From the NCBI GenBank assembly GCA_025061115.1, contig JANZKC010000004.1, positions 135,171 to 199,170 of the forward strand: a DNA stretch of 64,000 nt, read 5' to 3'. The notes below the pieces were generated by a model. That model saw only the letters and a list, made by a program, of their open reading frames with translations. It had not been told where the DNA came from and ran no database searches. The translations under genes were made by a program, and so were the position numbers. Source of the DNA: Candidatus Culexmicrobium cathedralense. GTDB lineage: Archaea; Thermoproteota; Methanomethylicia; Culexarchaeales; Culexmicrobiaceae. Shown piece by piece: positions 1-37,708 of the stretch (position 1 is its first letter; each line of letters opens with the position of its first letter).

Positions 1-168
1 ATACAACTATAATTATAGAAGCCGGAAATCGAAGCATAAACTCAGCCAAACTGCCAAGCCCTCCATCAATTAACGAACACTCGCGCAGTCAATAAATATT
101 CATGATGGCCGAGTGCAAATGAATACAACAAGAACTTGACACTTCGTCTAAGCGCAGCGTCTTCAGAT

Positions 169-717: not shown

Positions 718-1009
718 CCTCCTCTAAAAACCTCTCATCACCATACCTCAAAACAACACCCCTACGCTTAAGCTCACCAAAAAACTCCCAATAACTCAAA
801 CCAGAAACCTCAACAGCCCTACCAATCGAAATCAAACCCCTAGAATACAAATCCAAAGCCAACCTCACCCTAAGCTCCCTAACACCAAACCTAATAGCAT
901 CACGCAAAACATCAGAACGATCCCTACCCAAAGCCCCAGCCAAAAAATCCAACTCCTCAAGCAACTCCACAGGCAAACGAACAGTAGTCACCTTAAACAA
1001 AACAAACAC
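683..1009 (-). CDS. UPF0175-family antitoxin with N-terminal ribbon-helix-helix
   Basis: VTTVRLP..DRSDVLRDAI (RHH) followed by ALDLYSRGLISIGRAVEVSGLSYWEF (UPF0175 pattern); paired with DUF3368 PIN. Confidence 0.85.
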   Translation of the reverse strand: MFVLFKVTTVRLPVELLEELDFLAGALGRDRSDVLRDAIRFGVRELRVRLALDLYSRGLISIGRAVEVSGLSYWEFFGELKRRGVVLRYGDERFLEEVGEFLGVGGCL

Positions 1010-4204: not shown

Positions 4205-4221
4205 TATTACTGGTGATTACC

Positions 4222-4434
4222 ATGGTTGTTGCCTTCGATATCGAAACTACCGGTCTAAATCCCCTCAAAAACGTTGTAATTCTAATTGGTGTAAAGAAAG
4301 GAAAGCAACTAATTCAATGGAAAATTTGGGAGTACGGAAGTGAAGATAAAATAATTCTCGAATTTATGAAATATATTGAAAGCGTCGATCCTTATGACGC
4401 GGTTATTATAGGTTACAATGCTTTAAAATTTTAA
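4222..4434 (+). pseudogene. truncated RNase H-like (DEDD/RNase_H_2) exonuclease fragment
   Basis: VAFDIETTGL (ExoI) and GYN...F (start of ExoII), then a stop exactly where FD is expected; ExoIII absent. Confidence 0.7.
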
Positions 4435-4497: not shown

Positions 4498-5391
4498 TTA
4501 TCTATATTTCATGAGAACTCTTGCATTGTAAATTGAAAGCCAGTATTTCATCTTGCTAAAGTCTTTTGCTGAAAGGATTTCATTGATTGCCCTTTCAAGT
4601 ATTGGATCTCCTAAAGATATCTTAAGTAATTTATGATATCCAAGCTTACTAATCTTGCATCTCCTAATGTTGTCTTTGGTGAGATAATATATTTCTCTTA
4701 AATATGCGGCACGTATATGACTACTTGTGTCTAAGCTATCCACTATGTTTTTTAAGTAGTTTAACATAGATGGGCTTAAGACTCCAAGTAGATGCAATTT
4801 GGTCTTGCGTCCAATTTCATGTCTAATCGATTTGACTATTTTCTTAATTTGGTTTAATTTTCCTTCTTTAATGAGAGGTACAAGTGAACCTATGGCTATA
4901 TAGTTGGAACCCATTTCTGCAAGTTTTCGCGCTGAATAAGTATAGCTTTCTACATTCCATCCGTGAGCTACGGTAATTACTTCAACTCCGAGCTTATCAG
5001 CGAGCTTTAGATAGACTTCTGCTAGATCTAAATTTCTTTGCAAAATTTTTTGCTTAGCTTCCTGAGAAAGCTGTTTATTGACTAATGGGTGATCTTTCTG
5101 GATGATATAATCTGCACCTAGCCCGACTTGAATGTTAAATATGACGTTGATAGGTATAGCTTTATTTTCATGGCTCCAAAGAGAAGAAATTAATGAATCG
5201 ACAATTAATTTACCTCGATAATTAAAGCATGTTTTAAATCCTTTACTGATCAGATGATCCATATGGCGCTTAGAGTTCATTATATTGCCTAAACTAATTA
5301 GAATTCCATCAACTTCCATGTACTTCCAATATGGCGGGTCTTGAGGGTTTAATCTCCATGTTAGGTAGATTTTCAAGCGATTTCTCCTCAC
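4498..5391 (-). CDS. divergent tRNA/DNA-guanine transglycosylase (TGT)-fold protein
   Basis: Ordered TGT-barrel motifs IVDS, GADYIIQKDHP, VAHG, IAIGSL, HLLGV, DSLDTSS; no CxCxxC zinc site. Confidence 0.75.
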   Translation of the reverse strand: MRRNRLKIYLTWRLNPQDPPYWKYMEVDGILISLGNIMNSKRHMDHLISKGFKTCFNYRGKLIVDSLISSLWSHENKAIPINVIFNIQVGLGADYIIQKDHPLVNKQLSQEAKQKILQRNLDLAEVYLKLADKLGVEVITVAHGWNVESYTYSARKLAEMGSNYIAIGSLVPLIKEGKLNQIKKIVKSIRHEIGRKTKLHLLGVLSPSMLNYLKNIVDSLDTSSHIRAAYLREIYYLTKDNIRRCKISKLGYHKLLKISLGDPILERAINEILSAKDFSKMKYWLSIYNARVLMKYR

Positions 5392-6320
5392 GCATAGAGG
5401 GATATTGCCTTTATAGCTTCTTCTGGATCTATTTTTCCATTTCTGAGATAGATTTCATCATAGATTATTGCTGTTAACCTTAGAATTTCACCGGGATTAC
5501 CATTAGTATAATCATATAATCTATCAACGACACTTTCTGGAAGGAAGCTTGCAACCTCGGGTAGATATATTCTAAGGAATTCGAGGACTTCATTTTTTGT
5601 TAAATTTCTTAAGTATATTAGCATCGCTGAAAGGCGTCTAGACAAGGCCATGTTTATCGAGACAATTTCATCCCAGCCAGCTGGTGTAGAGGCAACTAGC
5701 ATGAATAGATTATAAGAAGCGTCATCAATTAATCTTCTAAGAGCATTCATGTATGATAACCGCTTGTACTTTTTCAGCTCCAATATTGTTTCAAATTCAT
5801 CGAGCAAAATCAAAATCAACTTATCACCTTCAAGAATTAATTGAGTTAGCATCTCCAAGGATGTCCAAACATCTAAATTCCTTGTTAAACCAAGCTTTCT
5901 ACGAATCTTAGCATCAAGCTTCTCTCCCAATAACCATAAGTAATAGAAGTATTCGTAGGTTTCAGAGGAATCAGCGGGTGTAATGGCTATCTTGTCATTG
6001 ATTACTCTTAATGCTATCTCCTTATACATTCGATTTTTAAGTAACTTTCTCATCACCGCATTGTAGAGGTCTAGGAAGCTTCTACCAGGAGATGAAACGT
6101 AAATTGGAAGGACCTTTTTTGATGATGAATATACGTGCTCTAAATGCTTAAGAAAATGCGTTTTACCAAAGCCATAGCTTCCAATTATAGCTCCTGCGCC
6201 GGAAAACCTTCTTCGCTGAGATTTTTCAATATAGCTTCTTATGCGCTCAACATTTCCATCGGGATCAAACATTTTATCAAAGAAGCGAGGAATTGCAAGA
6301 CGATTAAGCATAATCACCAC
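5388..6320 (-). CDS. AAA+/P-loop ATPase
   Basis: Walker A GSYGFGKT, Walker B ILLDEFE, arginine finger ALSRRL, TNGNPG helical-lid motif. Confidence 0.85.
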   Translation of the reverse strand: MVIMLNRLAIPRFFDKMFDPDGNVERIRSYIEKSQRRRFSGAGAIIGSYGFGKTHFLKHLEHVYSSSKKVLPIYVSSPGRSFLDLYNAVMRKLLKNRMYKEIALRVINDKIAITPADSSETYEYFYYLWLLGEKLDAKIRRKLGLTRNLDVWTSLEMLTQLILEGDKLILILLDEFETILELKKYKRLSYMNALRRLIDDASYNLFMLVASTPAGWDEIVSINMALSRRLSAMLIYLRNLTKNEVLEFLRIYLPEVASFLPESVVDRLYDYTNGNPGEILRLTAIIYDEIYLRNGKIDPEEAIKAISLYA

Positions 6321-6967
6321 TTCCCACTTTTGATGAAGATATACACGTATTTGCGACCCCTAACGCTAACTGCTCTACTAGAATTTTTGTCAAAGAGAGG
6401 TGCGGGAGCTAGGATCACGTTCTCTCGATTTTCATCAACAAATTTAGCAAGAAGCTCCTCGAAAACTTTTGAGCTCAAATTAAGCTCCTTAATAATGCAC
6501 TTTCTTACCTCTACAATAGGCACGTACTTAGACCGCATATTTCTTGAAATCTTCCTGTAAGTCTCAATTATTTTGTCCATAAAAAGCGAGTAAATTTCTC
6601 TTTGCTTAGCTGGTGAAAGATAAAGTACTTCATTCAGCAGCCTAAGCGAAATATCCACAACTAACGCATTAAGACCCGTCTCTTCAGCTATACTTTTAAT
6701 AGTCGTAAATCCACCAAAGTATGCATTTGCAACTCTCTCATACTCCGGCAGCCTCAAGAGATACTTATGTAAAATGTCTCCCCGCTTCTCACTATATGCT
6801 TCCAAAAAGATCTTGCCATCCTCAGTTATGGAGTAGCTTTCTCCATTATACGTTGCAAGCTCCATTTTTAACAAGGTATGAATCGCTTCAGAAGATCCAC
6901 TATAGGCTTTACCAGCAGCAATATTGCTTAATGTCCTTATCAAGGACTTAATGGTAACTGGTCTCAA
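6314..6967 (-). CDS. multi-winged-helix DNA-binding protein (putative)
   Basis: YSITEDG wing, TIKSIAEETGL HTH, C-terminal VPIVEVRK..LNLSSKVFEELL wHTH-like segment; overlaps the ATPase gene. Confidence 0.55.
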   Translation of the reverse strand: MRPVTIKSLIRTLSNIAAGKAYSGSSEAIHTLLKMELATYNGESYSITEDGKIFLEAYSEKRGDILHKYLLRLPEYERVANAYFGGFTTIKSIAEETGLNALVVDISLRLLNEVLYLSPAKQREIYSLFMDKIIETYRKISRNMRSKYVPIVEVRKCIIKELNLSSKVFEELLAKFVDENRENVILAPAPLFDKNSSRAVSVRGRKYVYIFIKSGKW

Positions 6968-7049: not shown

Positions 7050-7214
7050 ATGTTTAGTGAAGAAGAGGAGATAAAAATACTAGGTACTTCAAAAATTACG
7101 AGACGTTTCCAGGTGACAATAATTAAGGAAGTTAGAGAGCTCCTCAAAATAAAAATCGGAGATATCCTCGTATTTGAAAAGCATGGAGATAAAGTGATAA
7201 TCAGAAGAGGTTGA
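7050..7214 (+). CDS. AbrB/MazE/SpoVT-family DNA-binding protein (54 aa, absent from ORF track)
   Basis: Hand translation: MFSEEEEIKILGTSKITRRFQVTIIKEVRELLKIKIGDILVFEKHGDKVIIRRG*. Confidence 0.85.
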   Translation: MFSEEEEIKILGTSKITRRFQVTIIKEVRELLKIKIGDILVFEKHGDKVIIRRG

Positions 7215-7220
7215 CCACAA

Positions 7221-9104
7221 TTATTGTGTGGACTTTTTAAAGCCGATCCAATTGAGTAAAGTTGGATTTTTAGCTTTGAAATGTAAATTAAGCATATCAA
7301 AGATGTGCTTAATGAGTAAAGTTTGATTTCTAACGCCCTTCACGGGGAACACTGTTGCCCTTATGTCGTGGTTATGATATGCCTTAGTAATTGGCGCTAC
7401 TATCACAGCTCGATCATCCATAAGCAACTTATTAACAGCTTCCTCAGCAGCCAGCAAATAGGCTTTGCTTAGATTAACGATGATTAAATCATAGTCGTCT
7501 TTAACGTAACTGAGAATTTTTTCCTCCACATTGTGCTTTGAAGCCCATTTTCTAATCCAATCACTAGACTTTCCGCTGAATGTTGCATCATACGGTATAA
7601 TGCGATCTTGCCCATGAATAACGCCATATCGAGCTGATATAAAAACTACATCAACTTTCACACCTTTGCTCCTAAGCTTATTAACACCTCTCTTAACAAC
7701 TCTAAAATTGCCAGCATACATATCTTCAGCCTTCAAAATAAATTCGCTAAGCAATTTTCTGTAAAGACCTTCGTTCTCAATATCAAATTTAGGCTTACTT
7801 AGACCATAACTTCTCAATTTTTCGTCAATTTTTCTCCACTCAACATTTTTCTGAGCCGTGCAATTGGTTATCACAAGAATGTTCTTCAGCTTTGTTGGAA
7901 TCCAAGGATTCAAGTCTAACAATTTTGTCAAATCTAGCTTTAAGTGCCTGCTTTTAGCTATTCTAAAGTTGACAAGTTTTTTCTCCTTCAAAAAATTACT
8001 AAACACCCACACATTATGGAAGCCTCTTCTCCTATTTCGATCATTACCTCTAAATATTACCACGTCAATTCCGATTTCACGACAAATTTTGCACTTGCAC
8101 TTTTTCCAAGGCCTATTAATTAATAATTCATAGTAGTATGGCAGGTAGTCTACTCCCCCATTAAGATAGACGTACTCTTCGACGAGCCGCCACAACTCCC
8201 TAAAATTCATCGCGCCTTCGTCATACCTATGAAGCGCATCGAGCAACTCCTTTTCAAGTTTACTTTCTTTCCACACACGAATCGCAGTATAGGCTTTGCC
8301 ATCCAAAGTAATGTAATTGCTAAAATGTCTAAGCCAAGCAATTCGAAGAACAGTCGAACTGTCAAATGACACCGTCTCAGCTATGCTGCCCTCCAATTCT
8401 TGAAACAGCGGAATAAGCTTAAGTCGAGCAACTCCTAGAAAATGAAGTCTCCTAAGCTTAACACCATGCAACTCTCCACGGAGCTTTTTTATAAGTTTCT
8501 TAATGAAAACCGAACTGCGCCTAGCTAAACCTCCAAGAGCAAAACTGTCAAATCCTTTACTGTAAAGTGCCTTGACAAACTTCACATAATCATTTGAATT
8601 AATGCCCTGCACTGCTGCCAACAACAAAAACTTTTCCTTGAAATTCCTCCTCCACTCATCAAGCATCTTCAAAGCATTCTCATAAGTAATACGCATCCTC
8701 CACAACTGATCCTCAGCACTCGTGCCAAGAATAGCTATATGATCAACAGTAACACCAAGATCAACACCAATTCTTGAATAAAACGTCAACATCTCAACGG
8801 GATCATATGGCGGGGTTATTTGACGGACATACTGCCAAGCACCGCAATCGCCCATAACCTCAGCATGCCCAGGTAATCTTAAAAAACTCTTAACGCCAAG
8901 CTCTTCAACACGCCTAACAATATGCTTAAGCTCCAAAACACTACGAGAGACCAGCACGCCCTCAAAGGGAATTTCGCCAAGAATGTGCCAAAGCCTAGCA
9001 CCAAACCTAAATTTATCCTCTATAAAGCCATCAGAGTGACGTTCTTCCTTAAAATCAAAACCACCATCAACGATATCATGCCAATCGGGGAGTAGATATT
9101 TCAT
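7221..9104 (-). CDS. dpdA: DpdA-type 7-deazaguanine DNA transglycosylase fused to a C-terminal YaaA/DUF6884 (DpdC-like) domain
   Basis: MKYLLPDWHDIVD..FDF N-terminus, GDCGAW, VDHI, AVQG, ALGGL, HFLG, SFDSS and PWKKCKCKIC..IFRGNDRNRRRGFHN DpdA signature; C-terminal ITNCTAQK / AEDMYAG / ISARYG / PYDATF. Confidence 0.85.
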   Translation of the reverse strand: MKYLLPDWHDIVDGGFDFKEERHSDGFIEDKFRFGARLWHILGEIPFEGVLVSRSVLELKHIVRRVEELGVKSFLRLPGHAEVMGDCGAWQYVRQITPPYDPVEMLTFYSRIGVDLGVTVDHIAILGTSAEDQLWRMRITYENALKMLDEWRRNFKEKFLLLAAVQGINSNDYVKFVKALYSKGFDSFALGGLARRSSVFIKKLIKKLRGELHGVKLRRLHFLGVARLKLIPLFQELEGSIAETVSFDSSTVLRIAWLRHFSNYITLDGKAYTAIRVWKESKLEKELLDALHRYDEGAMNFRELWRLVEEYVYLNGGVDYLPYYYELLINRPWKKCKCKICREIGIDVVIFRGNDRNRRRGFHNVWVFSNFLKEKKLVNFRIAKSRHLKLDLTKLLDLNPWIPTKLKNILVITNCTAQKNVEWRKIDEKLRSYGLSKPKFDIENEGLYRKLLSEFILKAEDMYAGNFRVVKRGVNKLRSKGVKVDVVFISARYGVIHGQDRIIPYDATFSGKSSDWIRKWASKHNVEEKILSYVKDDYDLIIVNLSKAYLLAAEEAVNKLLMDDRAVIVAPITKAYHNHDIRATVFPVKGVRNQTLLIKHIFDMLNLHFKAKNPTLLNWIGFKKSTQ

Positions 9105-9522: not shown

Positions 9523-12500
9523 ATGAAACTCATCTTGAGTTTCAATGAAATATCCAGACTGGGAAAACATTCATGGAAAAATTTGACTGATGAGCATAAA
9601 AAATTAAGTGAAGATTTAATAATCAGCATAAAGGACTATCTTGAAAATAAAAAGAAAAGACATTATGCTCATGTTATTGTTGCACCCTATGGATCAGGAA
9701 AATCAACATTATTAGACTACTTGGCATATTACACTTGGAAAGAGCTTAAACGGCCTGCAATAATAGCTAATATGAACAGGATCTTAGAGTACATAAATAA
9801 TAAGTATAAAAAGGAAACTAAAGGTAAGCTACCCGAAGATAAGCTACCTGATATATTGGAGGAATTTTTCAAAGATTCATTGATTATGCTAAAAAATATA
9901 ATACTTCATGAAAACAATGTGCCGTTACCATTACGCTCAATTATTCCATTAAATGACATAATTTCAATAATTGATACTTTTCTTCAGAAAAATATAAGAG
10001 GATTACTATTAATAGATGAAGTTGAAGAGGCATTAAAGCAATTAAAAAATACAATAAATTACGTCACAAGCCCCTTTAGAGGATTATTTGATGCAATATA
10101 CAATACTACATCAAAAATTTATGTAGTGATCGCTTTTGGACCTCAAAGCGTATTAATGGAAGACATTCTAGGCTTATCCTCTGGATGGCGTAATGTAGTT
10201 AAAAGCATACCTTTATCCTCTCCTAGTATGATTTTTAATGAACTTCAAAGGCTTCTTCCCAACGAAGAAAAGAAAATCTTAAGACTTCTTTCAAATACTT
10301 TATGGTGGATAAGTAAAGGAGGACGGCCCGGATGGGTTTATAACTTTATAGAACAAAGTTTTCCAAGAAAGGTTATTCATTGTTTAAAAAATTTTAATGA
10401 AAAAAAGGAGCTAATTTACGATGATGAGTTACTAAAAGCTCTCAAGAAAGAAGTTGTTAAGGGTATACCCTGCTTTTCAGAATACGACTATATGAATATA
10501 CTTAACTTCTTGCCAAGCGATAGCTATATAGAAAGAAATCTCTTTAAAGTACTACTCGTCTTGATAGGTCCCCTGAGTGAAAATGATATTAGGAGTTTAG
10601 GAATAAATTACGACCGCTGCATTAAATTAAACCCCAAGATATTTGTCGTAGGAGATAAATTGATTCCTTATGATGCTTTCATCACGGCGGTTAGAAGAGA
10701 TCTAGAGAAAGTTGCTAAAAGTCGAAAAGCACTCGATTATAGAGATGGCAAAATTATTGAAAGAGCCATAAACCTTCTTGCCTTAGTTTTTAGTGCTTGG
10801 TCAGCCTTTGTCAATAAAATCCCCATGATATTAGATGAGAGAGATGCGTGGCAAGAACTTAAAGACATAGCAGCTGACTTAAGTCGAGAAATGTATGATA
10901 CAGAAACAGCCCGCCTAATAGAAAATTTTGAAATTCGTTGGCTTAAAATACCAAAAGAAGCCTATACTCCCGATGGTATAGTCTATGTAGCAATGCATCC
11001 AAGAATTATTGAAAATATTTACCCTCCAATATTTTCTATCCCTCTAATAGGTAAAGCGCGTCTAGATGGAATAGATGAAGTATACCCGTTTCTACGAGAT
11101 CAAGATTTAGAATATCTATCTGAATTAGCACAACAGCTTTTTGGCATTTTAGCTCACATCTTAAGCAATCAGAAAAATCAAGTTAAAGATGTTGCTGAAA
11201 AATATCTACTGGTGCCAATTATAGACGGAAGTAATTTGAATAAAATAAAAGAGTACATATTTAACAGTAAACTTAATGGAAAACATCCAATTTTAATTCC
11301 ACTAAGTCCATCAGGTGAAAAACTGAAAAAAACAATAGACCTACTTAAGAAGGAACTTAAAAGTTTTGATGAATTGCAAATAACTACAATATTAGAAAGA
11401 ATTAGTCCTCGTATGTCCATTTTTGTATTAGGCATTCTTTATGATATTGCTCATCAGGGCAAAAATGAAATATTATATACAGAGAGTGAAGAGGGATTAG
11501 CGAGAATAGAAAGAAGAATATTAGAGTCATATTCACGACAACTACTATTAATACTTTATGAAGCCATAATGGAAACAAAACGTGCCATAAGTTTGCAAGA
11601 ACTATTACCTGATTATGTTTTAGAGCTTTGTAAGAAACTTGATGAGCAGGCTCATAGTAAGTTAGGATCAAAAAGAGCAGAAGACCTTTGGTGCGTTCTT
11701 GCATCTCAAAAGACTATTGAAATATACGAAAAAATAATTGAATGTTTGAATGAAATTAATCATTTGACATCGGACCTTGTTGAGATTATTTATCCCGATG
11801 AAAGAGAGATCATTAAGGGCTTGCTAGTTAAAAAAGGCGCCTTAGATTATGTGAGGGATGCAAAAAGTTTATTTGAAAAATTATCTAAATGCTTAAGAGA
11901 TAATAACACATTTAATATGCTAAAATTAATATTAGAAGATGTTTTGAATCAAGAAAAATACATAGATTCTTTATTTAACAGAATTCAACATTCACTAAAA
12001 GAAATCTTTAAAGAAATTGAATATAAGAGTGTTTGGTACGCATTAACGTCATATTTGACTCATATGCTGGCAGATCAATGCTCAAATCCTTATATTAAAG
12101 GATTAAATGGAAAAGACTTGCAATTTGAAAAATCCAAGCTTAAAATTAAGTTAGGTAAATTGAAAGATAAACTTAATATTAATAAGCTTAAAGAACTTGC
12201 TAACTTAATGGAAAATTACCATTTGCCACAATTCATAGAAATGTTAAGAGAAAGACTTGAAAAATTTGAGAAAGTGTTAAACAAACTAAAATCTTTAATA
12301 GAAGATCTTAAACCAACAAATATCTATGAAAAATGGACTTATACTGTTGCTTTTATTAAAAAAGAAGCTGAAAGAAGTTTTATGGAGAACATAACAACTA
12401 TACTTGAAAACCTTGATAGTAAACTTTTGGGTAGCTATGCTAGTTATTTAACTCAAATTAGCGATATCTTTACGAAGACAATCCCAGATTTAAAAAGTAG

Positions 12501-12720
12501 AATCTATAATATTAGCGAAAGTGGAGAACCGGTTCTCAATGAAGATTTGAAAACAATACTCAAAAGAAATTCAAATCTTAAGAGTTTGCGTGATCAACTT
12601 CAAAATTATATAACTCAATTACAAGGCGCGCTAAATGACCTAGGCAGGTACCCCATTAAACATGACTTCAAGAAACTGCTCACTCTCCTTGATGAGATAA
12701 ACGAGATGATGATGGTATGA
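9523..12720 (+). CDS. large P-loop ATPase with helical/coiled-coil C-terminus (DpdH-like)
   Basis: Walker A APYGSGKST, Walker B LLLIDEVEE, GGRPG motif; ~1065 aa; first gene of the helicase-PLD operon. Confidence 0.7.
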   Translation: MKLILSFNEISRLGKHSWKNLTDEHKKLSEDLIISIKDYLENKKKRHYAHVIVAPYGSGKSTLLDYLAYYTWKELKRPAIIANMNRILEYINNKYKKETKGKLPEDKLPDILEEFFKDSLIMLKNIILHENNVPLPLRSIIPLNDIISIIDTFLQKNIRGLLLIDEVEEALKQLKNTINYVTSPFRGLFDAIYNTTSKIYVVIAFGPQSVLMEDILGLSSGWRNVVKSIPLSSPSMIFNELQRLLPNEEKKILRLLSNTLWWISKGGRPGWVYNFIEQSFPRKVIHCLKNFNEKKELIYDDELLKALKKEVVKGIPCFSEYDYMNILNFLPSDSYIERNLFKVLLVLIGPLSENDIRSLGINYDRCIKLNPKIFVVGDKLIPYDAFITAVRRDLEKVAKSRKALDYRDGKIIERAINLLALVFSAWSAFVNKIPMILDERDAWQELKDIAADLSREMYDTETARLIENFEIRWLKIPKEAYTPDGIVYVAMHPRIIENIYPPIFSIPLIGKARLDGIDEVYPFLRDQDLEYLSELAQQLFGILAHILSNQKNQVKDVAEKYLLVPIIDGSNLNKIKEYIFNSKLNGKHPILIPLSPSGEKLKKTIDLLKKELKSFDELQITTILERISPRMSIFVLGILYDIAHQGKNEILYTESEEGLARIERRILESYSRQLLLILYEAIMETKRAISLQELLPDYVLELCKKLDEQAHSKLGSKRAEDLWCVLASQKTIEIYEKIIECLNEINHLTSDLVEIIYPDEREIIKGLLVKKGALDYVRDAKSLFEKLSKCLRDNNTFNMLKLILEDVLNQEKYIDSLFNRIQHSLKEIFKEIEYKSVWYALTSYLTHMLADQCSNPYIKGLNGKDLQFEKSKLKIKLGKLKDKLNINKLKELANLMENYHLPQFIEMLRERLEKFEKVLNKLKSLIEDLKPTNIYEKWTYTVAFIKKEAERSFMENITTILENLDSKLLGSYASYLTQISDIFTKTIPDLKSRIYNISESGEPVLNEDLKTILKRNSNLKSLRDQLQNYITQLQGALNDLGRYPIKHDFKKLLTLLDEINEMMMV

Positions 12721-13961
12721 TAAAAGGAAAAGCAATTGATTTCCTTAAAAAAATAAGTAATGAAAGACGTGAAATTGAACAACACTTAAAAGAGTCATTA
12801 GAATATGCAGAAAAAATTAAAGAAATTATAGAAAATTATCCTGATTTTTGCAACCATATCCGAAGACCATCTAAGCCGAAAGGGTTATGTCTAGATGAAA
12901 TAAAGCAATGTAAGAATGAACTACAAGAAATTTATATTGAGCTAATTGCTACAGCTGTCTTGAATAGTTTAAATATGGATTTTATTACTAAATCATCACT
13001 TATAGGCATAGTCCAACCTATAGCTGAAGAAATCCATGAAGGAGTCTTGTCTTTTAAAAACCTAATAATGCCAAAAGAATTTGGTATAGCTTTGTCAGAA
13101 GCTATATCGAGCTACGATCCTAATGTTGTACGTTCTGTTATCAAAAGCCTTTATACCGAGGATTTAGAAAATATTATGAAAATTAATGATGTAATTTCTA
13201 AGGTGAAGAAGAATGCAATTACATTTTACGGTAAAGATCATGCGAAAGAAATAGAAGAATTGTTGCTTAACTTGTTAAAACATTATGTGAGAAAGATTTT
13301 TGATAAAGAGGTAACTGTAAAAATAATGCTCGATGAAATAAAAGAACTTCAAGAACTAATACATGAAGCATATGTTATGACAACAAATTGTAATGCTATT
13401 TCTATACCTCGAACTAATGTATTAAAGAATTATATGATTAGGGCCTTCGCAACAACAATATGTGATTATCTGAATAAACTTATTAAGACGTGTCATCAGT
13501 TACAAGAATTGCCTAAACAAAGTAAATGTACTAAATGGAAAGAAAATATTGAAAAAACATTAAAAAATATTAAGCTTCTTATTAGTGAAATTGAAGATGA
13601 AAAATATTCTAAATTATTTAAAATACAAAAAATAATAAATAAATTAGATATATCTAATAACATTAAAAATAATATCGCTTCCTTAATACAAAAAATGTTA
13701 CAAAAAAATGGGCATTTAAATGAAAAACTTTGGTTAGAACTTGATGAAAAGTTAAACAATATTTTTAGAGGAACGATAAATGACGAACAACAAATATTAC
13801 TTAATGTAATTTTTTCAATGTTAACTGATGAAAAACGTGAGATGACTATTATAGAAATAATTGAACATGCCACGAAGAAAGTGGCTAATAAGGATAAGAT
13901 GCTTAAAGCGTTGTATGAGCTTTGTGAAAAAGGCTTGGTAGAGTGTTTTGTAAGGGTGTAG
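12717..13961 (+). CDS. helical/coiled-coil protein with possible C-terminal wHTH (in the DpdI position)
   Basis: ATGA overlap with the ATPase; C-terminal MTIIEII..LKALYELCEKGLVE wHTH-like pattern. Confidence 0.55.
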   Translation: MIKGKAIDFLKKISNERREIEQHLKESLEYAEKIKEIIENYPDFCNHIRRPSKPKGLCLDEIKQCKNELQEIYIELIATAVLNSLNMDFITKSSLIGIVQPIAEEIHEGVLSFKNLIMPKEFGIALSEAISSYDPNVVRSVIKSLYTEDLENIMKINDVISKVKKNAITFYGKDHAKEIEELLLNLLKHYVRKIFDKEVTVKIMLDEIKELQELIHEAYVMTTNCNAISIPRTNVLKNYMIRAFATTICDYLNKLIKTCHQLQELPKQSKCTKWKENIEKTLKNIKLLISEIEDEKYSKLFKIQKIINKLDISNNIKNNIASLIQKMLQKNGHLNEKLWLELDEKLNNIFRGTINDEQQILLNVIFSMLTDEKREMTIIEIIEHATKKVANKDKMLKALYELCEKGLVECFVRV

Positions 13962-13965
13962 ATTC

Positions 13966-16593
13966 ATGCCTCTTCCCGTTCCCCCTAAAAATATTGTAGA
14001 AATATTTACCACTAATGGTCGTAGTGAGGATTTTGCTAAAAGATACGTTGCTAATGCTATTTTATCATTAATTGAAGAAAAAGAACAGCAACATATACAA
14101 AACCTGGATTATGATGCTTGGGTAAAACTTTCTTATAAAGATATATGCGAGAAGATTATAGAATATGTGAACCATTTTGCTCGTGCAATTAATTCAAGGG
14201 GTTTGTCGTATGATGATGTAAACCATTCTGAACTATCTGAATATATAGCATGTGTTCTTTACACATTTGCGTCAGAAGGTATTTATGAGGCGCATCATAG
14301 CCGCTACATAATAATAAGGGGTGAATATGATGTTAATGCAATTAAGGATAAATTGACGAATAGCTTTCTAGAGGTCAGAAGTAGGTTTATTGAAATCGCA
14401 CGTAACCTTGTGAAAGTAAAACAAAGATTTTGGAATACATCGATATATGAGGCAAAACCATTGATAGATAGAGTTTTTGCATACGTTGAACCAAGGTTTT
14501 TACCTATTGATGTTGTTGATATATATCAAATTTTGGATGCCCTGGCTGAGAGAGTTAAAGTATTATATGAGGTTTTTTGTGGGAAGTTACGTAAAGAAGA
14601 GAATTCTCAAACAAAGGATTTCCTTGGGGAAGTTGTAAAAAATTTTCTTCAAAAAGTTATAAAATTTAGGCTTTACGAATATCAGGTGCGAGGATTAATA
14701 CAAATTTTAAATAACGTTAAAGATTGCATCGATAAATGCGTGGAAAGAGCAGTAGTATTACAAGCACCAACAGGTTCCGGAAAAACTGAAGCTTTCGTTT
14801 TGTCGATTATTCTTGCTTCTCTTGCGTATAAAGCCGCTTTAGATTGGGATAATAAATCACCTGCTGCGCTCATTATTTACCCGCGTAGAGCTTTAGCAAC
14901 AGATCAACTGAAACGACTAATTACTTATTTATTCCATATCAATAATGTACTTAAAGATGTTGGTAATAGGAGAAAACAAAAGTATGCCAAGTTAAGGCTT
15001 TCAATTAATTATACTGAAATAAGACCTATGAGAGAATATGAGGCTTTAGCAAAAAAGGTTCAACAAGAGAAGCCTAGAGAGTGGAAAGAATATAAAATGA
15101 ATTACATAAAGGTATTGTCGAAATATAGCAATGAAGGTGAAGTTTTAGTAAAATTGCCATTTCTGTGGCTACCTGAAAGTGATGAAAATCCCTGTATTGT
15201 AGTCTCATCAGACAGTTACATATGGTATAACCAGGACATGGATTTTGTTACAGTAACTAAAGAAGATGTTTATGAAAAACCAGGCGACATTCATGTAACC
15301 CTATTTGAGACCTTGAGAAATAACTTAAGAAATAAAAGAGCACATCCTATTTTTGGTTTTCCTTATGAGTATGGTCCCTTTATAATTGTATTAGATGAAG
15401 TGCATACTTATATAGGCATAACAGGCGCAAGATACGCGTATCTTCTCGATAGATTATTAATGGTTATTAAATGCCGTACCAATCGCCATACAAGAGGTGT
15501 TTTGTTTGTATGTGTAAGTGCTACTGTACCTAATCCTGAAAACTTTATAAAAAAATTATTAGCTGTAAAAGAATTTGCCATAGTGTCTCCGAGAGAAGCA
15601 GAGACTATCCCCCTTGGGAACGAATATTTCTACGTAATAATTCCTACGACCAAATATCTTGTAAACCACTTAGCAGTTTCTATACAAGCTGCTATGGTTC
15701 TGCATTTCAATATACCTGCATTAATTGAAGAAAAAGGAAAGAAAAAGAAGAGTTTTATCTTTTCGGACAACCTTGACGTCATCGAAAGATTTCGAAGAGA
15801 CTTTGGAGATGCCATTAATAGAAAATTGCAAGATCTCAGAAATCCCCTAGATCCTGCTTTTTACGATAAGACGATTAAGGAGTTTGGTGATGGACTATGT
15901 TGGAAAGAAGCACTTGATAAACCGTGGTTACTAGAATACCTTAAGTCGTGGAAAGAGGGTGAATATTGGTGGCCGTATGCATTGGAGAAAAAAGAGGGAT
16001 TAACATTTGACAAATTATCAAAATATACGGGACCTGAAAAAGGAGATGTAAAAGAGAGTGATATTGTCGTTGCAGATTCTGCGCTGGAGTTAGGGGTGGA
16101 TTATAGGGATGTTGTCGTAATATATCAACACGGCATTCCATTAAGTATTGCTTCATTAATACAAAGAGCCGGACGTTCAGGTAGAATTGTGCGAGACAAC
16201 CCCCTTGTAAGGGTGGCTGTAGCAGTAATGTTATCTCCATACATCCCTTCACAGGCAGCTCTATTCCAACTTCTTATTAGAAGCGAATCATTAAGGAATG
16301 TTCTTGAATATGAAAGTTTGAATATACCTGTTGGCAATAAGAAATTAATAGCTCAAACTATAGTGGAAAGTATTTTAGATTATATGTCGTTAAAACCCCA
16401 ACACTTAATGAGGTTTGAAGATATCGAAAAAAGATTACTTACATTCTTAAATAAAGAGGGGCGCTCCATTGTTCAATATATTAAAGATATGTTGAGGAGG
16501 CGTGCGGTTATGCTAAAACTCGAGATAGATGATGTGATAAAAAGCACATTAGATACATTAATCGAAGAACTGAAAGATGCTTGGGAGGCTTAA
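13966..16593 (+). CDS. SF2 DEAD/DEAH-box helicase (DpdJ N-terminal part / DrmA-like)
   Basis: Q motif LYEYQ, APTGSGKTE, IYPRRALATDQ, LDEVH, SAT, ALELGVD, QRAGRSGR. Confidence 0.9.
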   Translation: MPLPVPPKNIVEIFTTNGRSEDFAKRYVANAILSLIEEKEQQHIQNLDYDAWVKLSYKDICEKIIEYVNHFARAINSRGLSYDDVNHSELSEYIACVLYTFASEGIYEAHHSRYIIIRGEYDVNAIKDKLTNSFLEVRSRFIEIARNLVKVKQRFWNTSIYEAKPLIDRVFAYVEPRFLPIDVVDIYQILDALAERVKVLYEVFCGKLRKEENSQTKDFLGEVVKNFLQKVIKFRLYEYQVRGLIQILNNVKDCIDKCVERAVVLQAPTGSGKTEAFVLSIILASLAYKAALDWDNKSPAALIIYPRRALATDQLKRLITYLFHINNVLKDVGNRRKQKYAKLRLSINYTEIRPMREYEALAKKVQQEKPREWKEYKMNYIKVLSKYSNEGEVLVKLPFLWLPESDENPCIVVSSDSYIWYNQDMDFVTVTKEDVYEKPGDIHVTLFETLRNNLRNKRAHPIFGFPYEYGPFIIVLDEVHTYIGITGARYAYLLDRLLMVIKCRTNRHTRGVLFVCVSATVPNPENFIKKLLAVKEFAIVSPREAETIPLGNEYFYVIIPTTKYLVNHLAVSIQAAMVLHFNIPALIEEKGKKKKSFIFSDNLDVIERFRRDFGDAINRKLQDLRNPLDPAFYDKTIKEFGDGLCWKEALDKPWLLEYLKSWKEGEYWWPYALEKKEGLTFDKLSKYTGPEKGDVKESDIVVADSALELGVDYRDVVVIYQHGIPLSIASLIQRAGRSGRIVRDNPLVRVAVAVMLSPYIPSQAALFQLLIRSESLRNVLEYESLNIPVGNKKLIAQTIVESILDYMSLKPQHLMRFEDIEKRLLTFLNKEGRSIVQYIKDMLRRRAVMLKLEIDDVIKSTLDTLIEELKDAWEA

Positions 16594-18911
16594 AATTGTT
16601 CAAATTAAGTCATACAAAGGTCTTATGCAGATATCTCCCTCCTACTCTATTTATGGAAACAAATCTACCTGCCGTTAAAATTAAAATGGGGAAAAAGAAC
16701 GTGAGGAGTGAAGATATTGAACTATCTTTATCAACATATTTACCAGGAAAAGTAAGCTTTAGATGCGTTCCTGGTCTCATAGTACCTATTTATAAATCTC
16801 GTAAACGCAGGAAAAATAAACTTGTAATTATCACCGATAAGGTATATGAGCTTAGAAGCCCACTGTTAAGCTCTCATGAAAAAGAAAAAATTAGAGAAGA
16901 ATTGCCATTTTCTTTTAAGGTTTATCTAAATACGTTTGGGCTTCCATGGAAAGTAGACTTTTATAGGCTTGGCGGTGTTAATGCTCAGCCTTTTCTTTGG
17001 AATAACGGCTATCACTGGATGTTGTGGTTGACGAAAGAGCATATGATGTCAATAGTTTTTGAAAAGAAAGATATTGAGAACATTCTCAAAAGATATAGAA
17101 TCAAAAACATATACTTTCTAACAGAAAGATCAACTGTTTATCCGCTATTTAATTTGACAGTACTTAAATCTCTTGAAAAAACAGCTAATACTTTGCAATC
17201 TATCGCTAAAAGGCTGGGTTTCAATTTTATTGAAAGTGACGTGAGTTATTACTCAGCTGATATATTTAAGTATCTTTACGCTTTAAATTTAGAACTTGAA
17301 GTTCGCGCTGTCAGATCCTCTCAATATAATAACTCTTGTTCTCTACCCCAGCTTAGAAAAGTTACAAGGTTTAAACGAAAAATCATAGGTACAAGGATAC
17401 TTGCTAGGGATGAAGATATGTTGTCTCCTATATTGTTAGGATTTAAAATTGAAGATACCCCTTTATTGAAGTTAACTCCCGATGTTGAAGAGTTTATAGA
17501 GTATTTTTTAAAGAAAGGCTCGCAATTAATAATTCAAGATTCTTTATCGGGTTATACGAAATATGCTATAATAATGGACTTGACTATAAATCAACTTTTA
17601 GGAGATATAGGTTGCCATAAATTGCTTACCAATTTAAATCATGTTTTTTCGTATTTTGATATTTTCTGCAACGAACCAATACTTGATATTATTGAAAATG
17701 GAGATAATCTGTTTCACTACCTTCTGTGGTTTGACGAAAAACTAAGTGAAACAAGTAAATGCCCTGCAGATCTTTTGATATTTAAAGAGATAATTGGCGA
17801 ACGTTTATCGTCTTGTAACTTTTTATCAAAGATAAAAAAGATAAATCAAAGTATTAAAGAGAAAATCGAGAACAGACTAAAGGAAATTTCAAGTCAAGTT
17901 AAAGAAGCTAAATTTAATATACTAATGTCAATTCTTAATCATACTTTTAGTCACCATTTTCTTAAGGCTATAACTTTTAGAAGTAGTGTCAACAGCAGAT
18001 ACCTCGGAGAAATTTATCATTCATACTTTACCCATCCCAATTCTGGGAAATATAAATCGTTTTATATATATGAAATATCATCAGGAGGCGTTGGAGCCCT
18101 TGAATCTGTTGTAAATACTTGGCAAACAGATAAACAGAGTTTCATTATTGATGTCTTATTGCAAGCAGGGTCGTGTATTATAGGTATGCCTGAAGATTTG
18201 GTCTATAATATGCTACTTAAGAATTATAAGCCGCCTTCATCGATTGATGAGGCGAGATGTTATGTTATACAGGGACTCAAAGACGTAGATCTTCTAATAA
18301 CGCCTGAGGAGTGTGAAGAAGCTGCGAGATTATCGTTTAGTATAACCAAGGAATTTGATATGAGAGGTTGGGACATTGCTAAAGAGGTTGCTTACTGTAG
18401 AAGGGCGCTTGAAGATAAAATTAAAAGAACTGCCTTATCTCATGAAATATGCATTAATGTTCTTAAGAACCTTAGCTCTTGTAAGAATTGCAAAGAAGTG
18501 CTTGAAGAAATCATTCAAAGGACAAGTGAAGCACAGGGTTGGAATGTTGACGTAGAAATTCTAGATGAAATAAGAGAGGCTCTTTTCAATGTAGAAAACA
18601 AATTAGTCGAAAAAATAAGGAAAGGTGATAAAAGCATGAGAAAAATTGTAAGAGAAATTGGAAGGATACTAGAGGCGGCTTTACTGAGATTTGTTCTTAC
18701 ATCATGTCCAACAGCTTGCGGTTGGTGCTATATTAACTCTAGTGGATGTAGTGAAAGCTCAGCACCATGGCTTCAAGCATTGACTCTAAATAGGAGATTG
18801 TTAAAACACTATGCTACATGGACATTAAAGAGGGTTAGAGATAAGAGAAATGAAGGTCTAACCTTAGCTTCAGTAAAAATTGGAGGAGACGTAATAAAAG
18901 TAATAGGGTAG
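16581..18911 (+). CDS. DUF1998-like protein (DpdJ C-terminal part / DrmB-like)
   Basis: HTFSHHFLKAI, YIYEISSGGVGAL and C-terminal CPTACGWC..C zinc cluster typical of DUF1998. Confidence 0.75.
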   Translation: MGGLKLFKLSHTKVLCRYLPPTLFMETNLPAVKIKMGKKNVRSEDIELSLSTYLPGKVSFRCVPGLIVPIYKSRKRRKNKLVIITDKVYELRSPLLSSHEKEKIREELPFSFKVYLNTFGLPWKVDFYRLGGVNAQPFLWNNGYHWMLWLTKEHMMSIVFEKKDIENILKRYRIKNIYFLTERSTVYPLFNLTVLKSLEKTANTLQSIAKRLGFNFIESDVSYYSADIFKYLYALNLELEVRAVRSSQYNNSCSLPQLRKVTRFKRKIIGTRILARDEDMLSPILLGFKIEDTPLLKLTPDVEEFIEYFLKKGSQLIIQDSLSGYTKYAIIMDLTINQLLGDIGCHKLLTNLNHVFSYFDIFCNEPILDIIENGDNLFHYLLWFDEKLSETSKCPADLLIFKEIIGERLSSCNFLSKIKKINQSIKEKIENRLKEISSQVKEAKFNILMSILNHTFSHHFLKAITFRSSVNSRYLGEIYHSYFTHPNSGKYKSFYIYEISSGGVGALESVVNTWQTDKQSFIIDVLLQAGSCIIGMPEDLVYNMLLKNYKPPSSIDEARCYVIQGLKDVDLLITPEECEEAARLSFSITKEFDMRGWDIAKEVAYCRRALEDKIKRTALSHEICINVLKNLSSCKNCKEVLEEIIQRTSEAQGWNVDVEILDEIREALFNVENKLVEKIRKGDKSMRKIVREIGRILEAALLRFVLTSCPTACGWCYINSSGCSESSAPWLQALTLNRRLLKHYATWTLKRVRDKRNEGLTLASVKIGGDVIKVIG

Positions 18912-18915
18912 TTGG

Positions 18916-19692
18916 ATGATCATGTTCTTCATTTACAGAACCATTGGATCAAGTAAGATAGAACAAGCGTTTCTTGACCTTTTTTACGAGGAGTTTTTAA
19001 CTGAGGAACATGATGATATCTATATAATCTCACCATGGATAACACCATTTAGTTTCTCTAAAAAAATTGTAGTATACCCATACATAGTTGCTGATAACAT
19101 TGTAGATGTATTGTTAGGGCTAGTAAAGATAGGCGTTAAAGTTAAGATTCTAACGCGTTGTATTGATGATCTGTTACCTCTTGATAAACTGTATTTAGTG
19201 GATCTTATATTACAGTCCGCAGGTGACGAAGTTAATTACAAAGTGCTACGTGAAATTTATGATTATTTGATAAATGATATTAAATGGGCAATAAATCGTA
19301 TGAAAGCGATAATTCTGCTTTCTAAAAGTGGAATAGAAATAAGGTACGATGTAGGTGAAGATCTTTATTCAAATAGACTTCACTCAAAAATGTATGTGGG
19401 AAGTAAAAAAGCTATTATTGGCTCTGCAAATCTGACACAGAGCGGTATTGTTGATAATAGAGGAAATAAAGAATTCATATTAGTAGTTGATAGAGAAGAG
19501 CCTTTATACGAGAAAATACGAGAAGCTGCCATAAAGTATTTCGAACAAGGATATAACTTTGAAAGATGTGAGAAAAGAATTATTAGAACAATAAATCGCA
19601 TACTTACTGAGAAGTTCATAAGCCTCAACGATTTTATGAAATACATGGAAAGAGTTCTAATATCTATCAGTCCAAAAACCAAATACCGTTAA
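18916..19692 (+). CDS. phospholipase D-family nuclease (DpdK/DrmC-like)
   Basis: IYIISPWI, single HxK motif LHSKMYV..AIIGSANLT..G..N.E. Confidence 0.85.
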   Translation: MIMFFIYRTIGSSKIEQAFLDLFYEEFLTEEHDDIYIISPWITPFSFSKKIVVYPYIVADNIVDVLLGLVKIGVKVKILTRCIDDLLPLDKLYLVDLILQSAGDEVNYKVLREIYDYLINDIKWAINRMKAIILLSKSGIEIRYDVGEDLYSNRLHSKMYVGSKKAIIGSANLTQSGIVDNRGNKEFILVVDREEPLYEKIREAAIKYFEQGYNFERCEKRIIRTINRILTEKFISLNDFMKYMERVLISISPKTKYR

Positions 19693-37704: not shown

Positions 37705-37708
37705 GCTT

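Follow-up and report, generated by a model that had tools for sequence, protein, structure and literature searches.

To our knowledge, Dpd is the only known restriction-modification system that is based on 7-deazaguanine. Its transglycosylase DpdA, a member of the tRNA-guanine transglycosylase (TGT) superfamily, is reported to require the ATPase of DpdB in Salmonella (PMC10164549), and dpdB is described as accompanying dpdA in 92% of genomes (PMC5699537). A phage DpdA2, on the other hand, is stated to insert preQ0 in E. coli by itself, without DpdB (PMC10516641). The nearest published idea to the one put forward here concerns the BREX-related capture (BRC) system (BREX, bacteriophage exclusion), which is described as comprising a TGT, an ORC/Cdc6-like AAA+ protein (ORC, origin recognition complex), a STAND NTPase, and the tripartite DNA-binding protein DUF4007, and for which the authors propose that an NTPase substitutes for DpdB (PMC12839542).

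Here we describe a 64,000-nucleotide stretch of the archaeon Candidatus Culexmicrobium cathedralense (assembly GCA_025061115.1, contig JANZKC010000004.1, positions 135,171 to 199,170; the whole stretch is hereafter called the window), in which a trio of overlapping genes lies beside a gene for a fusion of DpdA and DpdC (627 aa). The trio encodes a 217-aa protein labeled winged helix-turn-helix (wHTH), a 310-aa AAA+-type ATPase, and a 297-aa TGT-fold protein, named TGT2 in this work. Judged from its gene content, the island that contains these genes is a Dpd-kind system in a variant form, with a fused DpdA and DpdC, a DpdJ in two parts, no DpdB, and the wHTH–AAA+–TGT2 operon as an addition. The trio may act on the marking side of this system, as we tentatively propose below. 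A first-pass annotation of the same DNA had taken it as established that DpdA needs DpdB; in the light of the two reports cited above, this holds for the Salmonella enzyme (PMC10164549) and not as a general rule (PMC10516641).

Fold, active site and phylogeny of TGT2

TGT2 matches the Pfam TGT family (PF01702; 30.8 bits, cut-off 26.3), and scores below the cut-offs of both the canonical DpdA model (NCBIfam NF041059; 79.2 bits, cut-off 200) and the archaeosine TGT (arcTGT) model TgtA (TIGR00432; 41.7 bits, cut-off 350). The motifs named in the first-pass annotation are all present, namely VDS (Asp65), DHP (Asp100), AHGW (His143), LHLLG (His200), DSLDTSS (Asp221), and YN (Tyr288–Asn289), and the two losses that it had pointed out are real. 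Thus, no GG-aromatic sequence follows DS, TGT2 carrying VDSLIS where all DpdA rows of the alignment carry GA followed by Phe, Trp, or Tyr (the GDCGAF/W gate), and the zinc cluster is missing, with no CxCxxC motif, Cys55 and Cys245 as the only cysteines, and YN in place of the HN of relatives, so that Tyr288 occupies the position of their zinc-ligand His. GS instead of GG was considered as a signature of the family and rejected, as GS is found also in some canonical DpdA and arcTGT-like rows.

In the profile–profile alignment of the TGT2 family with 18 canonical DpdAs (hhalign probability, 99.94 over 222 columns), Asp65, Asp100, His200, and Asp221 of TGT2 are paired with Asp86, Asp121, His221, and Asp248 of the DpdA domain in the window, and His143 with its pocket Gln. 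The DpdA domain itself keeps Asp86, Trp90, Asp121, Gln166, Asp248, and the cluster Cys336/Cys338/Cys341/His363, in the window as well as in four related loci (L002–L005, described below). When TGT2 was aligned by phmmer with the Salmonella DpdA structure (PDB ID: 7UI4), His143 and Asp221 fell on chain positions 201 and 276, which correspond to His181 and Asp256 on the assumption of a 20-residue tag. In that enzyme, Asp95 is described as the general acid/base and Asp256 as the nucleophile, whereas Asp130 and His181 are said to read the base edge and Phe99 may be a gate (PMC10164549).

The AlphaFold2 (AF2) model of TGT2, built with 19 family sequences, has a predicted local distance difference test (pLDDT) score of 92.4 and a predicted template modeling (pTM) score of 0.90, and consists of the barrel and short C-terminal helices only; in place of the 128-residue insertion of DpdA, there is a C-terminal region of ~76 residues. 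In a Foldseek search of the PDB, the model resembled most closely arcTGT (1iq8; E 4.9e-14, TM-score 0.80), followed by DpdA (7ui4; E 5.5e-13) and bacterial TGT (E ~1e-11). Alignment and model together show TGT2 to be a confident TGT barrel, with the predicted general acid/base Asp, base-recognizing Asp, and nucleophilic Asp in place. Both paralogues, DpdA and TGT2, look catalytically competent in terms of their conserved residues. Complex prediction for the DpdA domain with TGT2 gave scores of 0.00, 0.38, and 0.00 against a mark of 0.32, which speak neither for nor against binding.

The family of TGT2 is small. A profile search, carried out exhaustively over 1.84 billion representative sequences, yielded 410 matches at E ≤ 0.001 and 14 at E ≤ 1e-30; about 20 proteins of 271–316 aa (plus fragments) match over nearly the full length, after which the scores drop to those of canonical DpdAs. 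Trp12, Asp65, Asp100, Pro102, Ala124, Gly168, His200, Asp221, Arg244, and Asn289 are invariant in 19/19 members, at a mean column identity of 39%, and the three aspartates (Asp65, Asp100, and Asp221) are also invariant in all ten sequences of a second alignment. Five members (P0013, P0016, P0017, P0020, and P0021) keep CxCxxC...HN and mostly DSG/DGG, whereas the clade of the window has lost both. Members P0004–P0022 reach 25–81 bits with NF041059, and P0024 does not match it; conversely, arcTGT-type proteins (PF01702 plus PF17884) match the TGT2 family profile at just 39–77 bits. A search for fused forms among longer proteins returned 18 arcTGT-type proteins only, which is weak evidence of their absence, and tblastn of TGT2 against plasmids and phages found canonical DpdA-type genes alone, none covering 80% of the query. 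A small TGT subfamily without the zinc site is hereby defined; in the literature consulted, this site is treated as conserved across TGT and DpdA structures.

Three quick maximum-likelihood trees were calculated: tree 1 with 74 rows; tree 2 with 64 rows, from which 14 rows of tree 1 (four long-branch rows, eight DpdAs, P0003, and P0010) had been removed and to which four plasmid TGTs had been added; and tree 3 with 53 rows (the first set minus 28, plus seven, of which five are arcTGT-type). The canonical DpdAs form a clade with TGT2 outside it (support 99, 99, and 100 in trees 1, 2, and 3, respectively), and the zinc-less core of the TGT2 family forms a clade of its own (99, 99, and 98). For the wider family, i.e. 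this core together with the five zinc-keeping members, support is weak (92, 0, and 85). The arcTGT-type rows constitute a separate clade in tree 3 (99), where TGT2 lies with the canonical DpdAs in a group of 35 rows (96). Because the arcTGT-type rows form their own clade and TGT2 groups with DpdA, TGT2 is, on this phylogenetic evidence, a small branch of its own, placed on the side of DpdA by all three trees, and no housekeeping enzyme; clustering with the housekeeping archaeosine TGT, which the first-pass annotation had named as an outcome that would speak against its view, was not observed. Short TGTs of cyanobacteria, to be mentioned later, form another branch (99 in trees 1 and 2), and the TGT2 and DpdA trees are congruent for the Thermoproteota loci (trees 1 and 2).

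The trio and its linkage to DpdA–DpdC

The genes of the trio overlap by 7 nt (217-aa and 310-aa proteins) and 4 nt (310-aa and 297-aa proteins), and all three open reading frames (ORFs) are real genes; blastp finds homologues of each (E 1e-27 to 1e-67) in four archaeal genomes besides this one. Of the first-pass description, three overlapping genes downstream of dpdA, the overlaps and coordinates are borne out. The trio is not contiguous with dpdA: a 253-nt gap intervenes, which contains an opposite-strand gene for a 54-aa protein of the MazE/AbrB type, divergent from the trio and convergent with dpdA–dpdC. Because of this gap and its opposite-strand gene, the trio looks like a transcription unit of its own. 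The upstream gene does encode DpdA (NCBIfam DpdA, 269.9 bits, cut-off 200; PADLOC DpdA, 250 bits), and not a plain one: residues 407–528 match PADLOC DpdC (37 bits, E 5e-10), Pfam DUF6884 reaches 26.5 bits, under its cut-off of 30, and this DpdC-like domain is alignable with the domain at the N-terminus of cyanobacterial DpdC–DpdA fusions.

The ATPase matches Pfam ATPase_2 (44.3 bits, cut-off 33.2), BrxC_BrxD (37.5 bits, cut-off 22.2), and AAA_22 (28.5 bits, cut-off 27), and the NCBIfam BREX_BrxD model over residues 128–223 only, at 40.7 bits and far from its cut-off of 350. Walker A (GxYGFGKTH), Walker B (Asp174 and Glu175), Thr212, Arg228–Arg229, and a GNPGE motif are invariant in 5/5 orthologues; the alignment thereby shows intact Walker A and B motifs, with further conserved motifs where sensor residues would be expected. 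For the 217-aa protein, the AF2 model (pLDDT 88.2, pTM 0.70) displays helix-helix-hairpin units. Its label as a wHTH protein in the first-pass annotation is weakly supported: the Pfam HTH_45 match stays below the cut-off (18.6 bits, E 0.0019, cut-off 25.5), a fold search of the PDB gave no match at E ≤ 0.001, the best weak ones being ORC subunits, a Pol III subunit, and MukF, and the Atlas offers no more than structure leads to winged-helix families (TM-score 0.46–0.67). The protein probably consists of three helix-turn-helix or winged-helix units. The family is small, comprising 27 clusters of 200–231 aa, among which three sources are named: Vulcanisaeta sp., V. distributa, and a Ca. Caldarchaeales metagenome-assembled genome (MAG).

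Related loci were searched for with a five-sequence family alignment that excluded the protein of the window, an earlier genome scan with a three-sequence TGT2 alignment having found no relative. Four loci were obtained (L002–L005), from Thermoproteus sp. CP80 and from Vulcanisaeta, Caldivirga, and Pyrodictiaceae MAGs. The order wHTH, ATPase, and TGT2 is kept in all four, with overlaps of ≤8 nt or gaps of 0–2 nt, and the proteins are 31–39% (TGT2), 33–36% (ATPase), and 31–35% (wHTH) identical to those of the window. A DpdA–DpdC fusion (43–47% identical) adjoins the trio in each of them. In L002 and L005 it shares the strand of the trio, lying directly upstream in the former and 24 nt downstream in the latter; in L003 and L004 the two are divergent. 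A queuosine-precursor (preQ0-type) transporter gene is also present in the Vulcanisaeta island (L003 5615–6208, minus strand; TIGR00697, 76 bits, cut-off 51), where it sits between the phospholipase D (PLD) gene and dpdA–dpdC.

Two haloarchaeal plasmids, from Halomicrobium salinisoli (NZ_CP084465.1) and Haloarcula sinaiiensis (NZ_CP073372.1), carry a comparable operon, whose genes encode a 344-aa short TGT, a protein of 292/293 aa, and one annotated as 'BREX ATP-binding', and in both it adjoins a long DpdA–DpdC fusion. The 292-aa protein is homologous to the wHTH protein of the window (hhalign probability 96.4, E 1e-9), and so is the ATPase to its counterpart (probability 99.3, E 2e-20). The haloarchaeal short TGT matches the TGT2 profile with a probability of 98.5 and keeps DSGGF and CxCxxC; it was rejected as an orthologue of TGT2, since it groups with arcTGT-like rows (support 96 in tree 2 and 88–92 in tree 3). 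An approximately unbiased (AU) test against one clade of the haloarchaeal trio TGT and TGT2 gave p 0.011, for a group that was named after the tree had been seen and with halophile rows of odd composition. A small wHTH regulator gene occupies on the two plasmids the same divergent position as the MazE/AbrB-type gene in the window. Queries with DpdJ, the 776-aa protein, and the PLD nuclease of the island (see below) had no match on the two plasmids; by annotation, one has a restriction endonuclease instead, the other a PD-(D/E)XK nuclease together with an EVE-domain protein and QueE/QueD.

As side observations, the fusions are 1159 aa (L010 4750–8229, plus strand) and 969 aa (L011 7657–10566, plus strand) long, that of L010 having ~220 residues, perhaps an additional domain or an intein, inserted after about residue 130 of its DpdA domain, and the Haloarcula trio is neighbored by an EVE-domain gene (L011 10700–11173, minus strand) and by a QueE plus QueD-like gene (L011 6281–7513, minus strand). 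EVE domains are known to read modified bases.

Altogether, the unit of ATPase, wHTH protein, and short TGT has DpdA–DpdC adjacent to it in 7/7 loci (5/5 in Thermoproteota and 2/2 on haloarchaeal plasmids), and the module without dpdA, whose common occurrence would by the first-pass annotation speak against its view, was not found. Because the haloarchaeal loci have other nucleases, the unit goes with DpdA–DpdC, not with one restriction set. The comparison of gene orders and sequences shows, as far as such evidence reaches, that the trio has been inherited together with the DpdA–DpdC fusion.

No ParB/DndB-like DpdB was detected among the 12 island proteins (Pfam, NCBIfam, and PADLOC) or the 47 further ORFs of the window (Pfam); likewise, none was found in the extra ORFs scanned in L002–L005, or in the annotation of the two haloarchaeal plasmids (by annotation only). 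The first-pass proposal that an ATPase and a DNA-binding protein stand at the place expected for DpdB thus fits these results.

Other arrangements of short TGTs were encountered on plasmids. Two from cyanobacteria (NZ_CP014001.1 and NZ_AP017297.1) carry a DpdC–DpdA fusion together with a Hel308-like helicase, a short TGT (307–315 aa), and a helicase, and in these two clusters no DpdB was annotated or detected, nor any DpdJ/DpdK. An Allocoleopsis (cyanobacterial) plasmid has a DpdA fusion, a DndB-like DGQHR protein, DpdJ, and DpdK, and no second TGT. A short TGT with an NTPase and without DpdA within 12 kb occurs in Natrinema and Deinococcus ficus, and a Nostoc plasmid has a short TGT of the cyanobacterial type among methyltransferase genes. 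The Natrinema neighbor, a 518-aa ATP-binding protein, was tried as a wHTH–ATPase fusion and rejected as unrelated (hhalign probability 0.2). A 430-aa coding sequence on a plasmid of Deinococcus gobiensis, annotated as a DEAD/DEAH helicase (L014 8974–10266, plus strand), contains the short-TGT match. It may represent a truncated gene or a fusion of TGT and helicase, two proteins that D. ficus encodes in separate genes that overlap.

Other genes of the island and the window

The window is a piece of archaeal chromosome, containing the genes for rpoB, rpoA', rpoA'', L30e, NusA, S12, S7, EF-1alpha, S10, and archaellins, into which an island of low GC content is set at ~1.3–19.7 kb (GC 0.29–0.37, compared with 0.46–0.51 around the RNA polymerase genes). 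The features of the island are listed in Table 1.

Table 1. Features of the low-GC island, with positions counted from the first nucleotide of the window
Feature	Positions	Strand	Evidence
TGT2, short TGT-fold protein (297 aa)	4498..5391	-	Pfam TGT, AF2 model, Foldseek
AAA+-type ATPase, ORC/Cdc6-like and BrxD-like (310 aa)	5388..6320	-	Pfam ATPase_2, BrxC_BrxD, AAA_22
Helical protein, presumed DNA-binding subunit ("wHTH"; 217 aa)	6314..6967	-	Pfam HTH_45 below cut-off, AF2 model
Small gene of MazE/AbrB type, possible regulator (54 aa)	7050..7214	+	Pfam MazE_antitoxin, 29 bits (cut-off 24.7)
DpdA–DpdC fusion (627 aa)	7221..9104	-	NCBIfam DpdA, PADLOC DpdA/DpdC
P-loop protein heading the helicase operon (1065 aa)	9523..12720	+	Weak Pfam nSTAND3/ResIII, Atlas feature leads
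Protein of no recognized family, overlapping its neighbors (414 aa)	12717..13961	+	ORF
DpdJ-like DEAD/DEAH helicase, N-terminal part of split DpdJ	13966..16593	+	NCBIfam, PADLOC
Likely C-terminal part of split DpdJ (776 aa)	16581..18911	+	Weak NCBIfam/PADLOC DpdJ matches
DpdK-like PLD-family nuclease	18916..19692	+	Pfam PLDc_2, NCBIfam DpdK

The plus strand holds an operon of five genes, encoding the 1065-aa and 414-aa proteins, the DpdJ-like helicase, the 776-aa protein, and the DpdK-like PLD nuclease. DpdJ and DpdK are the best PADLOC families for the helicase and the nuclease. The helicase matches positions 65–694 of the 1482 positions of the NCBIfam DpdJ model (190.3 bits, cut-off 800; PADLOC DpdJ, 196.6 bits) and, weakly through its helicase domain, the DpdF model (27.8 bits, cut-off 550). 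The 776-aa protein has weak matches to the same family, to NCBIfam DpdJ at model positions 1118–1216 (E 5.5e-4) and to PADLOC DpdJ (E 3.2e-5). DpdJ is likely split, in the window and the related loci, into the helicase part and a second part of 744–910 aa, compared with the single 1672-aa DpdJ of the Allocoleopsis plasmid. The nuclease reaches 44.3 bits with Pfam PLDc_2 (cut-off 27) and 31.1 bits with NCBIfam DpdK (cut-off 100). The 776-aa protein and the PLD nuclease are conserved in 4/4 related loci, and the helicase part in three (L002–L004), the contig of L005 beginning inside the next gene. The NCBIfam models of DpdD, DpdE, and DpdG–I matched none of the 12 island proteins.

The 1065-aa protein matches Pfam nSTAND3 and ResIII below their cut-offs, and its feature leads in the Atlas are ATPase_2-type archaeal ATPases (0.94–0.96); the 414-aa protein has no match above a cut-off in Pfam, NCBIfam, PADLOC, or PHROGs. 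Neither has a homologue in L002–L005, and the pair, confined to the window, may be an extra component specific to it or an inserted cassette of two genes.

Outside the operons, a 77-aa ORF at the edge of the island (4201–4434, plus strand) matches RNase_H-like (26.2 bits) and PolB-exonuclease (24.4 bits) families and looks like the remnant of a larger gene. Genes for PIN-domain and ribbon-helix-helix/UPF0175 proteins, resembling toxin–antitoxin pairs, flank the island and are scattered over the window (1–1009, 20633–21055, 32972–33493, and 37658–38068), and three small HTH_45 winged-helix genes (66–86 bits) lie in and around the archaellin cluster (57105–57404, 57858–58130, and 61892–62170, plus strand).

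Role of the trio and comparison with known systems

We tentatively favor the reading that the trio belongs to the marking side of the system and stands in for DpdB, as a second transglycosylase unit that is targeted to DNA and driven by ATP, although even this falls somewhat short of an even chance. A role in marking is suggested because DpdB is missing, because the DpdJ/DpdK pair is already present as in the Allocoleopsis-type system, and because the unit is co-inherited with DpdA–DpdC across different nuclease sets. In Allocoleopsis, the same DpdJ/DpdK pair occurs with DpdB and without a second TGT, so that nothing would appear to be missing on the restriction side of the window. The preQ0-type transporter in the Vulcanisaeta island and the QueE/QueD genes beside the Haloarcula one also speak for a marking-side unit.

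From the observed anatomy of the unit, the conservation of its catalytic and ATPase residues, its linkage to DpdA–DpdC, and the lack of a detectable DpdB, we infer the following course. The multi-HTH protein would bind DNA, and the AAA+ ATPase would take the place that the ParB-like DpdB has beside the Salmonella DpdA, providing the step that requires ATP (opening of DNA or loading). TGT2 would be a second catalytically active guanine transglycosylase that is delivered to DNA by these two proteins, and its target guanines might lie in another sequence context, on the other strand, or at the same sites as those of DpdA. DpdA would insert preQ0, the fused DpdC domain would convert preQ0 to the amide (ADG), and together with the trio they would mark the DNA as self. 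Marked DNA would then be spared by the PLD nuclease and the split DpdJ-like helicase.

Several points weigh against this assignment. Its main weakness is that an ATPase and a DNA binder would suffice to replace DpdB, so that an intact second TGT is left unexplained beside a DpdA that is itself complete. On the two cyanobacterial plasmids, the fusion is accompanied only by the helicase–short TGT–helicase set, where restriction may fall to the short-TGT unit. In Natrinema and D. ficus, a short TGT is found with an NTPase and with no DpdA within 12 kb, and the haloarchaeal trio TGT is no orthologue of TGT2 by the trees and the AU test given above. A small divergent regulator is the layout of the controller proteins of restriction genes, and the regulator gene beside the trio resembles, by analogy, such a layout. 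Moreover, DpdB is not required by every DpdA, the phage DpdA2 being described as working alone in E. coli (PMC10516641).

It is possible, although we consider it less likely than a role in marking, that the trio belongs to the restriction side. The ATPase and the HTH protein would then scan DNA, and TGT2 would flip target guanines into its pocket as a reader or glycosylase of unmarked G; the first-pass annotation had offered, as its second and third roles, a reader of modified G and a glycosylase that excises G from unmarked DNA. TGT2 would carry out only the first half-reaction on unmarked DNA, leaving a covalent Asp–DNA adduct or an abasic site, ADG sites being refractory, and the invader would either be damaged directly or the helicase and PLD nuclease would be licensed. 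Put more specifically, TGT2 could be a restriction enzyme derived from a tRNA/DNA-guanine transglycosylase, which is moved along DNA by the ATPase and the multi-winged-helix subunit, cuts the glycosidic bond at an unmarked target G, and puts no base back; we hold this form to be possible to about the same, rather low degree. The invariance of the catalytic triad of TGT2, in spite of a DpdA complete by itself, is in line with such an activity, as is the loss of the GG-aromatic loop and the zinc subdomain in the Thermoproteota clade, the Phe of this loop in the Salmonella DpdA having been proposed to gate base exchange (PMC10164549). The helicase–TGT–helicase set is the sole conserved companion of the cyanobacterial DpdC–DpdA, with no other restriction candidate there; in haloarchaea, the nucleases vary and the trio is constant; the divergent gene beside the trio is controller-like; and DNA glycosylases are established as defense effectors (bioRxiv 10.1101/2025.10.29.685425). 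On the other hand, the Thermoproteota islands already hold a DpdJ/DpdK-type pair, which in Allocoleopsis goes with DpdA and DpdB and no second TGT, and the losses are not general, as the haloarchaeal and cyanobacterial short TGTs keep the DSGG-aromatic sequence and the haloarchaeal ones also CxCxxC. Furthermore, we know of no TGT-family enzyme that acts as a hydrolytic DNA glycosylase, no search having been aimed at one, which also counts against this role. If it were true, the writer (DpdA–DpdC) and the eraser of unmarked G would be paralogues, and the short TGT plus NTPase beside DpdA–DpdC in Thermoproteota, Halobacteria, and Cyanobacteria would represent convergent versions of an excision logic.

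We regard it as unlikely that the trio is a self-contained second marking unit, i.e. a short TGT with its own ATPase, analogous to DpdA plus DpdB, that places its own 7-deazaguanine mark independently of DpdA–DpdC. Such independence would agree with the separate promoter region and regulator of the trio, with the short TGT–NTPase pairs of Natrinema and D. ficus, and with the Nostoc TGT among methyltransferase genes, but it is made less likely by the presence of DpdA–DpdC next to the ATPase–wHTH pair in all seven loci, by the single gene array in L002 and L005, and by the congruent trees of TGT2 and DpdA.

More doubtful still is a non-catalytic structural role of TGT2 as a partner of DpdA, similar to that of QTRT2 for QTRT1 in the heterodimeric TGT of eukaryotes, even though TGT2 is a paralogue encoded beside the catalytic enzyme and has lost the zinc site and the GG-aromatic loop. 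QTRT2 lacks the catalytic residues, whereas the three Asp residues and the base-pocket Gln/His are conserved throughout the TGT2 family in spite of its mean column identity of 39%. The Salmonella DpdA, in addition, is reported to be a monomer (PMC10164549). Given the invariant catalytic aspartates, a silent heterodimer partner is the least fitting of the three roles offered in the first-pass annotation. Finally, that TGT2 is a housekeeping tRNA enzyme (an archaeosine TGT or a split form of it) is highly improbable despite arcTGT being its best fold match in the PDB, in view of the low score on the arcTGT model, the separate arcTGT-type clade, a length of 297 aa in which the barrel and short C-terminal helices leave no room for the C1/C2/PUA domains, the location in a low-GC island, and the rarity of the family.

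We compared the locus with the systems already known. The bacterial Dpd system, as represented by Salmonella Montevideo DpdA/DpdB/DpdC plus DpdD–K, shares with the window DpdA, putative counterparts of DpdC, DpdJ, and DpdK (a DpdC-like domain, a DpdJ-like helicase, and a DpdK-like PLD nuclease), and the location of the genes in a horizontally acquired island; the window differs in having no ParB-like DpdB, in the fusion of DpdA and DpdC and the splitting of DpdJ in two, and in the added operon of multi-HTH protein, AAA+ ATPase, and TGT2. With only about seven conserved genes, this archaeal version offers a small testable system for the ATP-dependent step and for the possibility that a TGT fold reads or excises unmarked guanine. 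TGT2 itself has in common with the canonical DpdA (7UI4; NF041059) the TIM-barrel and the predicted equivalents of Asp95, Asp130, Asp256, and His181, whereas it lacks the zinc site and the Phe/Trp gate, has a shorter C-terminal region, stays below the model cut-off, and falls outside the clade.

The viral subfamilies DpdA1–DpdA4 are likewise described as short TGT-like DNA transglycosylases (PMC10516641), and some viral DpdAs, e.g. that of phage 9g, are reported to be without a complete zinc site (PMC5699537). The viral DpdA-like models match TGT2 more weakly, however (Foldseek against BFVD, best E 5.3e-9, TM-score 0.55–0.67, 12–19% identity); TGT2 has no match to Pfam DUF6610 (DpdA4), and reaches only 33.5 bits against PHROGs. 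Eukaryotic QTRT1/QTRT2 resembles the present case in having two TGT paralogues in one system, and differs in that both paralogues of the window keep the catalytic residues and that the accessory TGT2 is the one that has lost the zinc site.

In the literature searched, we found no description of dpd islands in which an AAA+ ATPase and a wHTH protein accompany a second TGT. The BRC system, as far as it is described (PMC12839542), comes close in that, without DpdB, it combines a TGT with a DNA binder of several wHTH units and with an ATPase resembling ORC/Cdc6 or BrxD; it differs in possessing PglZ and HerA, in its single TGT, and in the lack of a DpdA/DpdC pair in that description (PMC12839542), and, for its part, the island of the window has no match to PglZ, HerA/FtsK, GNAT, DUF6079, or DUF4007 (Pfam, NCBIfam, and PADLOC). 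The cyanobacterial clusters (NZ_CP014001.1 and NZ_AP017297.1) are alike in that DpdB is lacking and their DpdA/DpdC fusion is joined by another, short TGT with NTPases coupled to it, whereas their short TGT is of another lineage that keeps DSGGF, its partners are helicases instead of an AAA+ ATPase and a wHTH protein, and DpdJ/DpdK are missing. A second short TGT coupled to an NTPase thus recurs beside DpdA–DpdC fusions in three phyla, Thermoproteota, Halobacteria, and Cyanobacteria.

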